From NCBI RefSeq assembly GCF_054482525.1, contig NZ_CM137006.1: DNA of 64,000 nt; one strand, given 5' to 3'. Within the stretch, counting starts at the first letter, position 1, and every line of letters begins with the position of its first letter. The position numbers and the translations under genes were made by a program. A model generated the notes under the pieces. It searched no databases, had not been told where the DNA came from, and saw only the letters and a list, made by a program, of their open reading frames with translations. Shown here piece by piece: positions 39,988 through 44,957 of the stretch.

Positions 39988-40881
39988 TTAATCCTGACGA
40001 AGGACTTTGTGACCATAATCGAGTAACGCATCAGTGACTTTACGCATCATGCGGCTTTCAGGAGCAAAGCGGTGCCAGTAGAGCATCCGTCGTTGAAATA
40101 GCCCAGGCGTTAAGTCAATCAGTTCACCGCTGGCCAGCTCTTTCTCGATTTGCAGGTGCGGGATCATACAGCAGGTGGTGCCCTGGCGAGCAAGTTGCAC
40201 GAACGCTTCTGAAGAATTAACAATATGGCACGGTACGCTGCCTGGGGGCAGATCGAAGTTTTGCTGCAAAAAGGCCTGGTGCATATCGTCAAGATGGTCA
40301 AAGGCGACCACTGGCGCTTTTAGCAGAGCCGAACGCGTTACGCCGTTAGGGAAATATTTTTCGGCAAACGGTTTTGAGCTGACGAATAGATAGTCGAGCG
40401 CACCGAGCTTATCGACAAGACAACTCGGCAGCGCCTGATGTTGAATACTCACCGCGCCGACCACTTCGCCGCGGCGCAGACGTTCCTGAGTGCGGGTTTC
40501 ATCTTCTACCTGCAAGTTGAGGCGGATAGGCGAATCAGCTAACACAGGAGCCAGCGCCGGAAGCAACCACGTCGCCAGACTGTCTGCGTTGACCGCCAGT
40601 GAAAGCAGCAGCGGAGTCGAACCGGTTTGTTCATCGCCCAGCCACTCTTCTTCCAGCAACTCCACCTGGCGCAGCAGTGCCAGCAGTTTTTGCCCTTGTT
40701 CTGTCGGGCGCGGCGGTACGGTACGCACCAACAGCGGCTGCCCGAACATATTTTCCAGTTGCTTAATGCGCTGTGAGACGGCTGATTGTGTAATGCACAG
40801 CTTTTGTGCCGCGCGCTCAAATCCTCGTTCACGTATCACCGCATCCAGTGCCTGTAATGTTCTGTAGTCCGGGCGTTTCAT
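39988..40881 (-). CDS. argP: LysR-family regulator ArgP (IciA), 297 aa
   Basis: Start [28 protein letters not shown] at ATG(rc) 40881; the 360 aa ORF-track version is an upstream extension. Confidence 0.9.
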
Positions 40882-40951
40882 TGCTGTTGTCTGCTCCTGG
40901 TAAATGCTTTTTCCTGCACTATGACACAATTTTGCGTTGGGTACAGAGCAT

Positions 40952-42277
40952 TTAACGCATACAAAAACGGTCGAAATGGAAGTTTTGGCTGGCAATCCCA
41001 TTTTCATATAACCCTTTGCTGAGCGCTTTGGCAAAACTCTGTGGGCCGCAAAACCAGAAATGGGTGTCACCTTTATTTGCTATTTTATCAGTAAGATAGT
41101 GCACCTGTAGGCGCTCACCTTTATGCGCATCAAGCAGATGCAGTGTGACCCTGGCCTGGGCACAAAGTGAGGTCAGTTTATCAATATACCAGGCATCCTC
41201 GCTTCGGCTGACGCAATACCAGAGATCCACAGGAACAAAGGACGCGCCATGATGTTTACGATACTCAAGCTGGGCGATAAAGGGGGTAATGCCGATGCCT
41301 CCTGCTATCCAGACCTGGTGGGAGCAAGGGAGAGTAAAATCAAACTTTCCCCATGGCCCTTCAACGAAGGCGGACTGGCCGATTTTTATCGAGGATGCCA
41401 GAGTCGAGGTATAATCCCCTAAATGTTTGATCGCAAAGCGCAACGTGTTCTTCTCTTTGGTATATGAAGCGATAGTAAAAGGGTGAGATTCTTTACTGTG
41501 TGCGAACGTTAAGAATGCAAACTGCCCCGGAGAATAGTCGATGGCATGTTCCAGCTCAAGGGTGACTTCGGTAATTTGTCCCGGATGGTTAACAATGTTT
41601 TTAATGGTAGCCTGATGCTTGTTTTTACTACCGTTTAATTTCAGCAGCGAAATGAAAGCCGCAAAGACGCCCGGAATAGTAATTAAAATTAATAAATACG
41701 CAGCAGGAGTTTCCCACCAGTATGATTTAAACAAAGCAGTAAACACATGAAAGGCAATTGCCAGATAAAAGACGGGGAACAAACGGTGAACAAGATGAAA
41801 TAAATGATAGGGAACTCTTTTGCTAAGAGACACGAAAACCATCGCTATCATAATAAACATTGCACATTCACCCGCCAACAGTCCCGCATGAAGCCAATTT
41901 TCTTGTACTGGCGTCAGGTTAATATCAACGATTTTACCAGGGTGAGTAAGCCAGCCAAAGGCGACGAATAACTGGGGTAATTTTTCATCCAGCCAGTGGG
42001 CGAAAGCAAACGCTATGGCGCATATTCCTGCCCACTTATGTAATCGCCATGCTTTATCCAGACCGCCCAGCACTTTGTTAAGCCATGATGAACGCAACGA
42101 TAAACACATCGTCAGCGTCATCAGACACCACGCAAGGGTTCCCGTAAAAAAGAGTATGTTTTGTCGAAGGAACCATATTAGCGCGATTGGCTTTTCACGA
42201 AAAATATCACCGGACGACAAAAAAATAAGGCATGCGACAAAGCAAACCAACGTACCTGTAAGATTAGCTTTTTTCAT
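40952..42277 (-). CDS. NOX/ferric-reductase-like membrane flavocytochrome (6-TM bis-heme domain fused to FAD- and NAD(P)H-binding domains), 441 aa
   Basis: His pairs H-x13-H ([15 protein letters not shown]) and H-x12-H ([14 protein letters not shown]); FAD motif HPFTIAS; NAD motif GGIGITPF; C-terminal CGP motif; start codon uncertain (weak RBS). Confidence 0.7.
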
Positions 42278-42338
42278 TTTTTATTTCATTTTGGCAGCGG
42301 AGCATGGAATAACTCCATGCTCCCGTTAAACAGAGTGA

Positions 42339-42599
42339 TTATTTATAGAAAATCACAGTGGCGTGGATATAATTTTTACCGGAGAAAGAACTGATGTAGT
42401 AATTGCTGGCTTGTAACTCTTCCGCTTTCTCTTTAATTTGGCTTTCAACGCCCGCTGGATTGCTATTGTGTGTGGACATGCTCACTTTTGATAACTGTTC
42501 AAGATTATTGTCCGGTTTGTGTATCTCGGTTGCTGCAAATGCGTGTCCTGTGAGAGTGCAAAGAAATAATGCGGCAAATAAATTTTGCTTAATAGACAT
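42339..42599 (-). CDS. Small secreted DUF1471 (YdgH/BhsA/McbA-family) stress protein, 86 aa
   Basis: AAGGAG RBS; signal peptide MSIKQNLFAALFLCTLTGHAFA; C-terminal ...YISSFSGKNYIHATVIFYK resembles BhsA family ending. Confidence 0.65.
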   Translation of the reverse strand: MSIKQNLFAALFLCTLTGHAFAATEIHKPDNNLEQLSKVSMSTHNSNPAGVESQIKEKAEELQASNYYISSFSGKNYIHATVIFYK

Positions 42600-42615
42600 A
42601 ATAACTCCTTTTATA

Positions 42616-43245
42616 TTAAAGATAATGATTAAATACGTGTGTTATGAGATCAGGGATTTGCGCTAATGCATTTTGCTCGGCGAGTTCGCGTCCCGGTTGG
42701 GTTTTGTCGACGCCTTCCGCACGTAAAATATGTGTATTGGTAATGCCCATTAATTTCAGCGTGGCTTGCAGATAACTTTCCTGATGATCCAGCGCCAGAT
42801 GTGCTTCATCGCAATAGATACCGCCGCGCGTCGAGACAATAAACGTCGGTTTATCCGTCAGTAACCCAACGGCACCAGCGGAAGTAAAACGAAACGTTAA
42901 ACCAGCCTGACAGACCTGATCTATCCAGGTTTTGAGGCCAGATGAAACGCTGTGATTAATCATCGGCGCGCCAATAATGAGCACATCGCACGATGCCAGT
43001 TCATCAATAGCAGCGTGGATATCATTCACCTCCTGCTGAATTTGTGCGTTCTCGCACTCCGCTTTACCGCAAAGCGCCAGAAAGGTTTCTTCACGCAAAT
43101 GGGGTGGGGGCGTCAGGCCAACGTCGCGATGAATAATTGTGGCTTGCGCGAAACGTTGGCAAAGCGCTTCTACCAGCGCCTGGCTTAATTTCCGCGAACT
43201 TGAATGCTTAAGCATTGGACTGCTATCGATATGGAGAATTTTCAT
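42616..43245 (-). CDS. FMN-dependent NADH azoreductase/quinone reductase-like flavoprotein (AzoR/AcpD family), 209 aa
   Basis: Flavodoxin-like fold; MKILHIDSSP..., DVLIIGAPMINHSVSSGLKTWIDQV, FIVSTRGGIY parallel AzoR motifs. Confidence 0.7.
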   Translation of the reverse strand: MKILHIDSSPMLKHSSSRKLSQALVEALCQRFAQATIIHRDVGLTPPPHLREETFLALCGKAECENAQIQQEVNDIHAAIDELASCDVLIIGAPMINHSVSSGLKTWIDQVCQAGLTFRFTSAGAVGLLTDKPTFIVSTRGGIYCDEAHLALDHQESYLQATLKLMGITNTHILRAEGVDKTQPGRELAEQNALAQIPDLITHVFNHYL

Positions 43246-43322
43246 GGGGTTGCTCTCATTTCTGCGATGAGAGAAGTTTAATTGTTGTTGATATGGTGAT
43301 TAAATAGACATAATTGAACTTC

Positions 43323-43344
43323 ATTGTTGTGAAAATAGAACAAT
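43323..43344. promoter_or_regulatory. Candidate LysR-type binding box (ATTGTT-N10-AACAAT) in the divergent promoter region
   Basis: Perfect 6-bp inverted repeat with 10-bp spacer ending 2 bp before the LysR start codon. Confidence 0.3.
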
Positions 43345-43345
43345 C

Positions 43346-44242
43346 ATGATCGACTGGAATGATTACTACTACTTTGCCCTGATTGCCGATGAAGGCAGCT
43401 ACAGCCAGGCGGCGCTGCGTGCGGGTGTGTCGAAATCGGTATTAAGCCGTCGAATGGCAGCGCTGGAAGAGCGCCTCGGCGTGAGGCTTATTCAGCGAAC
43501 TACGCGGCGTCTGGCCCTGACGGCGGCAGGGGAACAGTTTGCTGTCGAGTGTCGGGCGCTGGTGGCTCAGGGGGAACGGGCCAGAGCGGTGGTGATGGCC
43601 GCCCAGGAAAGCCCACAGGGAATGCTGCGCGTCAGCGCGCCGGTATTTATGGCTGAAACATGGTTTGGTGAGTTCGTCAGTGAATTTATCGCCCGCTGGC
43701 CCCTGGCGAAGGTGCAACTGCTGGCAATTAATCGCCCGGTGGATATGGTCGCTGAAGGCATTGATATTGCGCTGGTTACGGCTTCCGGCGCGCTTGCGGA
43801 CTCGACGCTGCATTATAAAAAATTACATACCCAGGCTGATATTTTAGTTGCCAGTTCGCAGTGGCTGGCCCGCCATCCGCAGGTGAAGGCCATTGACGAT
43901 CTTAACCGCGTCGACGGGATCCTCCGCCTGACGAACAATGGCGGGAGCCAGTGGCAGTTAATGAATGGCGACCAGGAGATTACGCTGCATCCCGAGGCGC
44001 GTTTGCAGACAAATAACATTCGCATCATGTTGCAGGCAGTGCTTGGCGGGAATGGCGTGGCGTTATTGCCTCAATTTGCCTGTAAACAGGGGCTTGCCAA
44101 CGGTGAACTGGTGCGCCTGTTCGCACCGTGGAGCGGCATACCCAGACCGTTGTATGCTTTATTTGCCGGGCGAAAGGGGATGCCCGCCATTGCGCGATAT
44201 TTTATGGATGAGTTAACCACGCGGCTTGCCAACGGGGTCTGA
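43346..44242 (+). CDS. LysR-family transcriptional regulator, 298 aa (intact counterpart of the K-12 yqfE pseudogene position)
   Basis: [36 protein letters not shown]; divergent from the azoreductase-like operon. Confidence 0.8.
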
Positions 44243-44297
44243 ATCGCTTTTTTTGTATATAATGCGTGTGAAATTTCATACCACAGGCGAAACGATC

Positions 44298-44957
44298 ATG
44301 ACGCAGGATGAATTGAAAAAAGCAGTAGGATGGGCGGCACTTCAGTATGTTCAGCCCGGCACCATTGTTGGTGTAGGTACAGGTTCCACCGCCGCACACT
44401 TTATTGACGCGCTCGGCACGATGAAAGGCCAGATTGAAGGGGCCGTTTCCAGTTCAGATGCTTCCACTGAAAAACTGAAAAGCCTCGGCATTCACGTTTT
44501 TGATCTCAACGAAGTCGACAGCCTTGGCATCTACGTTGATGGCGCAGATGAAATCAACGGCCACATGCAAATGATCAAAGGCGGCGGCGCGGCGCTGACC
44601 CGTGAAAAAATCATTGCTTCGGTTGCGGAAAAATTTATCTGTATTGCCGACGCCTCCAAGCAGGTTGATATTCTGGGCAAATTCCCGCTGCCAGTAGAAG
44701 TTATCCCGATGGCACGTAGTGCAGTGGCGCGCCAGCTGGTGAAACTGGGCGGTCGTCCGGAATACCGTCAGGGCGTGGTGACCGATAACGGCAACGTGAT
44801 CCTCGACGTCCACGGCATGGAAATCCTTGACCCGATAGCGATGGAAAACGCCATAAATGCGATTCCTGGCGTGGTGACTGTTGGCTTGTTTGCTAACCGT
44901 GGCGCGGACGTTGCGCTGATTGGCACACCTGACGGTGTCAAAACCATTGTGAAATGA
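44298..44957 (+). CDS. rpiA: Ribose-5-phosphate isomerase A, 219 aa
   Basis: Start [21 protein letters not shown] at ATG 44298. Confidence 0.95.

Follow-up and report, generated by a model that had tools for sequence, protein, structure and literature searches.

A four-gene cassette between argP and rpiA

We analysed the argP–rpiA interval in a 64,000-nt stretch of contig NZ_CM137006.1 (RefSeq assembly GCF_054482525.1), hereafter the window. The interval contains four open reading frames (ORFs): a gene for a LysR-type transcriptional regulator (LTTR) on the plus strand, facing a minus-strand set of three genes that encode a paralogue of the azoreductase AzoR, a small DUF1471 protein, and a 441-aa bis-heme flavocytochrome of the bacterial NADPH oxidase (NOX) type (Table 1). 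On balance, we favour the view that this cassette is one regulatory and functional unit, in which the LysR protein, acting on a conserved dyad, governs the divergent azoR-like/DUF1471/NOX operon for redox protection in two cellular compartments.

The four genes and their divergent layout had been proposed from the letters of the DNA without database searches (the sequence-only reading), and both the ORF listing of the window and the RefSeq annotation of Escherichia coli SCU-102 agree with that proposal. SCU-102, a human rectal isolate, is 100% identical to the window over the argP–rpiA stretch, and its annotated gene order is identical to the ORF listing. The intergenic gaps on the minus strand are 16 nt (azoR-like/DUF1471) and 61 nt (DUF1471/NOX). 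G+C content is 38–46% over the DUF1471 gene and most of the NOX gene, compared to 52–58% in the flanks.

Table 1. Genes and other features of the argP–rpiA interval (window coordinates).
Feature	Position	Strand	Basis or remark
argP	39988-40881	-	start codon at 40881
NOX–argP spacer, 70 nt	40882-40951	-	between NOX stop and argP start
SpNOX-type bis-heme flavocytochrome (bacterial NOX), 441 aa	40952-42277	-	RefSeq label 'ferredoxin reductase family protein'
Two-codon mini-ORF preceding the NOX start	42278-42295	-	ATG AAA TAA, then AAA, then ATG
GC-rich 10-bp hairpin in the DUF1471–NOX spacer	42299-42323	-	RNA fold
DUF1471 (YhcN/BhsA/RclB family) small predicted periplasmic protein, 86 aa	42339-42599	-	PF07338 and signal peptide
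AzoR-family FMN-dependent NAD(P)H quinone/azo reductase paralogue, 209 aa, first operon gene	42616-43245	-	RefSeq label 'FMN-dependent NADH-azoreductase'
Divergent control region, 100 bp	43246-43345	.	between the LysR gene and the azoR-like operon
Inverted repeat CTCTCAT-N7-ATGAGAG	43253-43273	.	not conserved
Dyad ATTGTT-N10-AACAAT, putative LysR binding site	43323-43344	.	contains T-N11-A
LysR-type transcriptional regulator, 298 aa	43346-44242	+	ORF and NCBIfam LTTR models
rpiA	from ~44298	+	right flank

The NOX protein and its relatives

The ferric-reductase/NADPH-oxidase architecture that the sequence-only reading had assigned to the 441-aa protein was recovered by independent searches. Pfam matches were found to Ferric_reduct (PF01794, E = 1.4e-14, residues 45–174) and FAD_binding_8 (PF08022, E = 1.4e-8). 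The third Pfam family named in that reading, NAD_binding_6 (PF08030), gave no significant match (E = 6, over 16 residues only), and the NAD-binding part of the protein belongs to NAD_binding_1 (PF00175, E = 6e-7). The best match in a PDB sequence search was the NADPH oxidase of Streptococcus pneumoniae (SpNOX; 8qt6/8qq7, E = 5e-26), with human NOX5 lower (E = 6e-9). A phmmer search of the PDB with the membrane domain alone (residues 1–220) returned chance matches only, with no alignment to NOX5 or NOX2.

Bacterial NOX proteins have been selected by an FAD motif of the form H[PSA]F[TS][LIMV], an NAD(P)H motif, and two His-x12/14-His pairs at least 20 residues apart, located in transmembrane helices (TM) 3 and 5 of a membrane domain of 3–7 helices (Hajjar et al. 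2017, PMC5676040). The 441-aa protein passes all three sequence filters, with HPFTI at residues 265–269, GIGITP at 327–332 (within GGIGITPF, 326–333), and the pairs H80-x13-H94 and H164-x12-H177; the CGP tripeptide is present at residue 410. Among 70 homologues with 33–88% identity, all four histidines were invariant, as proposed for heme ligands, together with H265-P266, G327, G329, P332, F333, C410-G411, F438, and R441.

Hydropathy analysis gave clear helices at approximately residues 8–26, 41–59, 133–151, 162–184, and 194–212. The AlphaFold (AF2) model, which had a mean per-residue confidence (pLDDT) of 91.5 and a predicted TM-score (pTM) of 0.88, contained an amphipathic TM3 (helix 73–106) and further helices at 167–184 and 191–211. 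Taken together, hydropathy and the model indicate six TM helices, of which TM3 and TM5 carry the histidines, in agreement with the topology expected of a NOX. A Foldseek search with the model matched SpNOX (8qq7/8qt6) over its full length (E = 5e-26 to 7e-23, TM-score 0.74–0.83), followed by human NOX5, NOX2, and DUOX1. By sequence and predicted structure, the protein is thus confirmed as a bacterial NOX in its architecture, that is, a six-TM ferric-reductase domain followed by an FAD/NAD(P)H dehydrogenase domain. By analogy with SpNOX, and given a cytoplasmic N terminus and dehydrogenase domain, the inner heme would be held by H80/H164 and the outer heme by H94/H177.

SpNOX and the window NOX have in common a ferric-reductase domain of six TM helices, in which TM3 contains H-x13-H and TM5 contains H-x12-H, an HPF[TS] FAD motif and a GxGxxP NAD(P)H motif, an aromatic residue that is invariant at four positions from the C-terminal end (F438 in the window NOX), short periplasmic loops, and the lack of regulatory domains. 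However, the two proteins are only 22% identical over the structural alignment, and the window NOX is about 40 residues longer, with a TM3–TM4 loop of 35 residues. Its setting, an operon under probable LysR control that also encodes an AzoR paralogue and a DUF1471 protein, is also not described for SpNOX in the papers we consulted on that protein. In SpNOX, electrons pass from NAD(P)H to FAD, to the hemes, and to O2 or cytochrome c (PMC5676040, PMC11031084), the exposed outer heme reducing cytochrome c directly. Since bacterial NOX proteins were recognised in 2017, crystal and cryo-electron microscopy structures have followed, and the structural papers call the function and the true acceptor unknown. 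MsrQ is the only prokaryotic protein with a ferric-reductase domain that has a defined role.

These comparisons bear on one possible role of the protein, namely that of an NADPH oxidase that truly generates superoxide, for use in signalling or competition, with the AzoR-like and DUF1471 proteins as self-protection. The 441-aa protein has every sequence feature by which NOX is defined, and its closest solved relative consumes O2. However, the SpNOX authors doubt that O2 is the physiological acceptor, and SpNOX lacks the canonical O2-reducing centre of eukaryotic and cyanobacterial NOX, which consists of two His, one Arg, and a heme propionate near the outer heme. By inspection alone, made without structural superposition, this centre was not evident in the window NOX: position +4 relative to the outer ligand H94 is occupied by E98 and not by His, and there is no Arg at the periplasmic end of TM2, R62 being at the cytoplasmic end. 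Furthermore, deliberate production of reactive oxygen species in the periplasm has no known use in enterobacteria. We consider a superoxide-generating role decidedly unlikely.

The enzyme itself is not new, an E. coli NOX having been identified and cloned already in 2017. The list of Hajjar et al. includes one E. coli sequence (UniProt L2VL28, strain KTE10), which was cloned as 'EcNOX'. In our protein search, the NOX-type proteins of E. coli fell into only two families, that of the window protein and a rarer one (P0109) that is 37% identical to it. EcNOX is very probably the window protein, because the only alternative, P0109, has the FAD motif HPYTI and fails the published FAD filter. The earlier remark that NOX-type proteins are poorly characterised in enterobacteria was fair, but it needs the addition of EcNOX; a literature search on yqfE, L2VL28, and EcNOX returned nothing further than the 2017 paper. 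New here are the conserved LysR–AzoR–NOX cassette and its operator, the account of how the yqfE scar arose, and the inter-genus transfer, all described below. As for P0109, the gene (L087:5001-6308, 435 aa) is located beside IS66 and other transposase genes, without LysR, AzoR, or DUF1471 neighbours, and has relatives in Salmonella and Trabulsiella.

The NOX start codon is not preceded by a clear Shine–Dalgarno sequence, and the true start and the translation efficiency of the gene are uncertain. In the Salmonella copy at the same chromosomal site (locus L005), the stop codon of the mini-ORF is absent and the NOX protein is called four residues longer (445 aa).

Conservation, exchange, and control of the cassette

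Two kinds of four-gene cassette were found in Salmonella enterica. The first (L005) occupies the same rpiA/argP site as in E. coli and encodes all four proteins at 88–95% identity. The RpiA of this locus is identical to RPIA_SALTY, and source names include serovars Westminster and Abony; assignment of the locus to an Escherichia relative was rejected, as its RpiA and SerA are Salmonella enterica proteins. The second cassette (L003/L004) is at a different chromosomal site, with the four genes in the same order as in E. coli and protein identities of 51% (NOX), 73% (AzoR), 70% (LysR), and 37% (DUF1471). An integrase fragment lies upstream of it in L004.

More distant cassettes were simpler. A LysR gene facing an AzoR–NOX pair, with no DUF1471 gene, was found in Dryocola (L094) and in a metagenome contig (L093), where the pair is followed by an RND pump. 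A LysR gene facing NOX was found in L092 and in Azonexus (L007). An aldo-keto reductase gene as well as the pump flanks the L093 cassette, and a gene for a FUSC/AaeB-like exporter flanks that of L092. The NOX homologues of Pantoea and Entomohabitans were solitary. In 80 genomes from other taxa, no NOX-like gene had AzoR or DUF1471 neighbours, so the idea that this linkage is general to the whole NOX-like family was rejected. The stable core is LysR plus NOX, usually with AzoR, and only Escherichia and Salmonella have DUF1471 in addition. Unlike the characterised AzoR, the AzoR-like protein is encoded only in this cassette, always adjoining the NOX gene.

Synonymous divergence between the syntenic Salmonella cassette (L005) and E. 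coli was 0.17–0.62 in the module and about 1.3 in the flanking argP and rpiA. Because the module is less diverged than its flanks, the sequences indicate that the cassette was exchanged between E. coli and Salmonella long after the two genera split, by replacement at the syntenic site. The ratio of nonsynonymous to synonymous substitution rates (dN/dS, Nei–Gojobori method), estimated within E. coli and against Salmonella, was 0.02–0.24 over all four genes and 0.02–0.05 for the DUF1471 gene. Such values point to purifying selection on all four genes and argue against neutral decay of the intact copies.

The control region was conserved as well. The palindrome ATTGTT-N10-AACAAT that had been pointed out in the divergent promoter ends one base before the LysR ATG and lies 78–99 nt upstream of the azoR-like start. 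It is the sole match in the window, but its sequence statistics alone are modest because 0.22 matches are expected by chance when up to one mismatch is allowed; the weight of the dyad comes from its conservation. The loci of E. coli, Salmonella (both cassettes), and Dryocola share the same two arms and differ in the spacer (GTGAAAATAG, GCGATAAAAG, and GCGTTAAGAG). At the same position by the LysR start, distant loci contain dyads of other sequence, TCGTC-N10-GACGA in L092 and TCGT-N12-ACGA in L093 and Azonexus. Nucleotide identity between E. coli and the second Salmonella cassette was 76% in the control region, mostly in the LysR-proximal 65 nt, compared to 57–67% in the four coding sequences. 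This pattern is the one expected of an LTTR recognition site that also autoregulates, and we predict the dyad to be such a site. Phylogenetic footprinting therefore supports the LysR control suggested by the sequence-only reading. The inverted repeat in the azoR-proximal part of the control region (Table 1) was rejected as a regulatory element, being conserved neither in the second Salmonella cassette nor in Dryocola.

Within the operon, the hairpin in the DUF1471–NOX spacer had a predicted energy of −18.9 kcal/mol in E. coli (z = −3.7) and was not followed by a U-run. A hairpin of different sequence occurs at the matching place in the second Salmonella cassette (L003:4956-4982, z = −3.5), and one was also found in the syntenic Salmonella copy (L005, ~4967-4991, z = −3.8). 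These hairpins are possible intra-operon processing or stability elements and, by analogy with rclA versus rclBC, may set unequal mRNA levels upstream and downstream in the operon. At the other end, a scan of the NOX–argP spacer gave no terminator-like site (fold z = −1.9, no U-run), and it is possible that the LysR-controlled operon reads through into argP in carriers. In K-12, the sequence shared with carriers reaches only about 56 nt upstream of the argP ATG, and the deletion scar takes over beyond that point, so the DNA upstream of argP differs between carriers and non-carriers. An Rfam scan of positions 40,700–44,500 gave one sub-threshold chance match and no known RNA element.

The partner proteins were assigned to families but not to named orthologues. 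The AzoR-like protein matched Flavodoxin_2 (PF02525, E = 4e-39) and FMN_red (E = 2e-11) in Pfam, and AzoR of Pseudomonas putida (4c0w, E = 2e-29) and of E. coli (1v4b, E = 1e-22) in the PDB. The alignment with 4c0w covers residues 1–198, including the PM(Y/I)N and (S/T)xGG stretches of the FMN site. Because it scores under the NCBI curated cut-offs (72.8 bits against the NCBIfam AzoR subfamily model, cut-off 188), the protein is, judged by its sequence, a member of the AzoR family and a distinct paralogue, not the AzoR equivalog. The DUF1471 protein matched PF07338 (E = 1.5e-7) and has a hydrophobic N-terminal leader, a predicted signal peptide ending in GHAFA and followed by ATE. BhsA was the nearest NCBIfam model (53 bits, cut-off 90), and YhcN, YbiJ, RclB (27.7 bits), and McbA also scored under their cut-offs. 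By these scores, the protein belongs to the family and is an orthologue of none of these five named members; no PDB sequence relative was found at E ≤ 0.01. The LysR protein matched the NCBIfam LTTR models PRK14997 (2e-50), YafC (4e-44), and AaeR (3e-36), all under the equivalog cut-offs. Its best PDB sequence matches were 3szp/3t1b (E = 1.4e-34), and Pfam HTH_1 and LysR_substrate are on record for its orthologues.

The neighbouring genes bear on a second possible role, that of an assimilatory or protective metalloreductase that would reduce Fe(III) or Cu(II) chelates on the periplasmic side, as do yeast FRE and STEAP proteins, with the DUF1471 protein active in envelope metal handling. The Ferric_reduct domain fits this role, as do the many database entries named 'iron reductase', the proposal that some MsrQ-like proteins with NAD domains are iron reductases (PMC8238504), the ability of the exposed outer heme of SpNOX to pass electrons directly to an external protein, and the fact that, among NCBIfam models, the one closest to the DUF1471 protein is BhsA, which is linked to copper (PMC12096828). 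However, no iron or copper transporter, TonB receptor, siderophore, or VIT1 gene adjoins any cassette. The conserved partner is a quinone/azo reductase rather than a metal-handling protein, and control is by a dedicated LysR protein, with no evident Fur or CueR site (no formal Fur-box scan was run). A metalloreductase is, in our judgement, an unlikely explanation.

Loss in E. coli and the possible role of the operon

We searched 5426 complete E. coli genomes with a 3.8-kb query and found the full module region, at a coverage of at least 80%, in 232 of them (~4.3%); operon DNA was present in 247. The sequence-only reading had described an accessory region missing from K-12 except for a yqfE remnant. 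The near-absence from K-12 was correct. Apart from the flanks, all that remains in K-12 W3110 is 57 nt from the azoR-like 3′ end (91% identical) and the last 193 nt of the LysR gene (window 44,050–44,242, ~99% identity). The K-12 pseudogene 'yqfE' is thereby explained as the 3′ end of the regulator gene of the cassette, namely its last 63 codons (100% identity over 63 codons).

What did not stand was a simple insertion into a K-12-like ancestor, which is ruled out by deletion scars common to non-carriers. We compared five non-carrier lineages (K-12, O157:H7, a bloodstream isolate, and two others). In the common scar, the left flank stops at window position 40,937–40,942 and is followed by a 57–75-nt remnant of the azoR-like 3′ end (window ~42,624–42,703, 77–91% identical), which in four of the five lineages is fused directly to position 44,050. 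In the remaining lineage (PEC011, L089), the right junction is eroded further and carries an insertion, and O157 has an additional small deletion in the scar. Because the deletion scars are shared by all examined non-carrier lineages, the sequences place the module in their ancestor, with deletion afterwards. In PEC011, the eroded remnant of the LysR gene and the rpiA promoter are separated by this insertion (L089:1258-1376), an unrelated sequence of about 120 nt that shows internal dyad symmetry.

Genomes with operon DNA were not uniform. Among 60 evenly spaced records drawn from the 247 with operon DNA, the NOX gene was disrupted (by IS1 or as a split annotation) or partly covered in at least 16. 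In E. coli FUJ80154 (L096:1501-3603), an IS1A element lies in the NOX gene, at one position throughout an allelic group with ~98.3–98.4% identity to the window; it splits the gene into 'FAD-binding oxidoreductase' and 'ferric reductase-like transmembrane' fragments, while the LysR, AzoR-like, and DUF1471 genes are annotated as intact. Alleles of the module are 95–97% identical (differing by up to 5%), whereas the flanks are 98.5% identical (differing by 1.5%).

These data raise the question of whether the cluster is a decaying remnant that is being lost and is now without function in E. coli. Such a view would account for its deletion from about 95% of complete genomes, the further erosion of scars in O157 and other lineages, the IS1 insertions and split ORFs, the greater divergence of module alleles than of flanks, and a NOX start without an obvious Shine–Dalgarno sequence behind a two-codon mini-ORF. 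On the other hand, all four ORFs are intact in the window, the dN/dS values given above are low in comparisons among E. coli as well as with Salmonella, the arms of the operator do not vary across genera, and E. coli and Salmonella recently exchanged the cassette and have kept it. We regard a functionless remnant as quite unlikely.

In the functional unit that we favour, the LysR regulator would bind the dyad beside its own start codon and control the divergent three-gene operon, the inducer probably being either an oxidant or a small molecule that is redox-active or electrophilic, for example a quinone. The AzoR-like product would, by family analogy, use NAD(P)H for the two-electron reduction of quinones or azo compounds in the cytoplasm, and the DUF1471 product would be a secreted stress protein. 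The NOX product in the inner membrane would take hydride from cytoplasmic NAD(P)H to FAD and pass single electrons through the inner and outer hemes to an acceptor at the periplasmic face, for which O2 (giving superoxide), a quinone, and a metal chelate are candidates. Protection would thus span two compartments, with AzoR detoxifying in the cytoplasm and NOX supplying reducing power to the periplasm.

We infer a response to redox-active or electrophilic stress because of the quinone detoxification known in the AzoR family, the AaeR-like regulator, the efflux and aldo-keto reductase neighbours, and a layout like that of rclABC. Quinone-detoxifying activity of AzoR-family enzymes is reported in PMC4051601. 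The presence of AaeR among the closest NCBIfam models of the LysR protein, together with the pumps and the aldo-keto reductase beside distant cassettes, hints at aromatic or xenobiotic stress. A more specific version, in which a quinone or redox-active xenobiotic induces the cytoplasmic two-electron reductase along with a transmembrane NAD(P)H-driven electron exporter whose acceptor is a periplasmic molecule or protein and not O2, is tentative, and we hold it to be doubtful in its full detail.

Several observations weigh against a single protective unit. The module is dispensable, being absent by deletion from most complete E. coli genomes, and its NOX gene is often disrupted where operon DNA persists. 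The heme difference spectra of EcNOX were weaker than those of SpNOX and PaNOX, and its authors continued with SpNOX only (PMC5676040). The window NOX has its own dehydrogenase domain, which leaves the pairing with AzoR unexplained. The DUF1471 protein contains no cysteines and no obvious cofactor site, and Dryocola and the more distant cassettes do without it. A simple scan of the 100-bp control region for sigma-70 promoters gave no candidate, the counts not exceeding those in shuffled sequences. Finally, the role may not generalise across the NOX-like family because most of its members in other bacteria have quite different neighbours.

Two known E. coli systems offer parallels. The rclABC/RclR system, a defence against reactive chlorine and hypothiocyanous acid (HOSCN) (PMC12096828), likewise has a dedicated divergent regulator and the gene order cytoplasmic flavoprotein reductase, DUF1471 periplasmic protein, inner-membrane protein. 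Transcripts for its DUF1471 and membrane proteins are reported to be lower than those of the first gene (PMC12096828), which may parallel the presence of the hairpin between the DUF1471 and NOX genes of the cassette. The resemblance is one of layout only: RclR is of the AraC type and the cassette regulator of the LysR type, RclA is a HOSCN reductase of the pyridine-nucleotide disulfide-reductase type, and RclC is a DUF417 protein without hemes. The stress-induced MsrPQ system with Fre also has a bis-heme membrane protein with a ferric-reductase domain that sends electrons outward to the periplasm (PMC5676040, PMC11031084), and a soluble cytoplasmic flavin reductase as functional partner. In contrast to the window NOX, whose dehydrogenase domain is fused, MsrQ has no fused FAD/NAD domain. 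Its periplasmic partner is the molybdoenzyme MsrP, whereas the cassette encodes no periplasmic redox enzyme, and the soluble reductase of the cassette is of the AzoR type (Flavodoxin_2) rather than of the FNR fold of Fre.

In both E. coli and Salmonella, the NOX of the cassette comes with its own dedicated regulator, a conserved operator, and a conserved enzymatic partner. The question of bacterial NOX function thereby becomes directly testable in E. coli, for which K-12, with scars only, is a natural null. Were a two-compartment system with an acceptor other than O2 to prove true, it would give a fused bacterial NOX its first defined physiological role, and in a host that is genetically tractable. 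Were the operon merely a decaying accessory cluster, the result would be of local annotation value only.

A different setting was seen in another branch of the NOX family. In Betaproteobacteria, Gammaproteobacteria, and others (L008–L086), the NOX-like gene is typically preceded on the same strand by genes for dihaem cytochrome c (PF09626), a cytochrome-c-like DUF1924 protein (PF09086), and PepSY-domain proteins. Such clusters were present in 25–35 of about 80 loci (e.g., L063:4926-5888, L015:4493-5464, L046:739-1047, and L027:973-1635), and a gene for an OmpR-type response regulator was found near the NOX-like gene in loci of this set. For this branch, c-type cytochromes of the periplasm are plausible as physiological acceptors.

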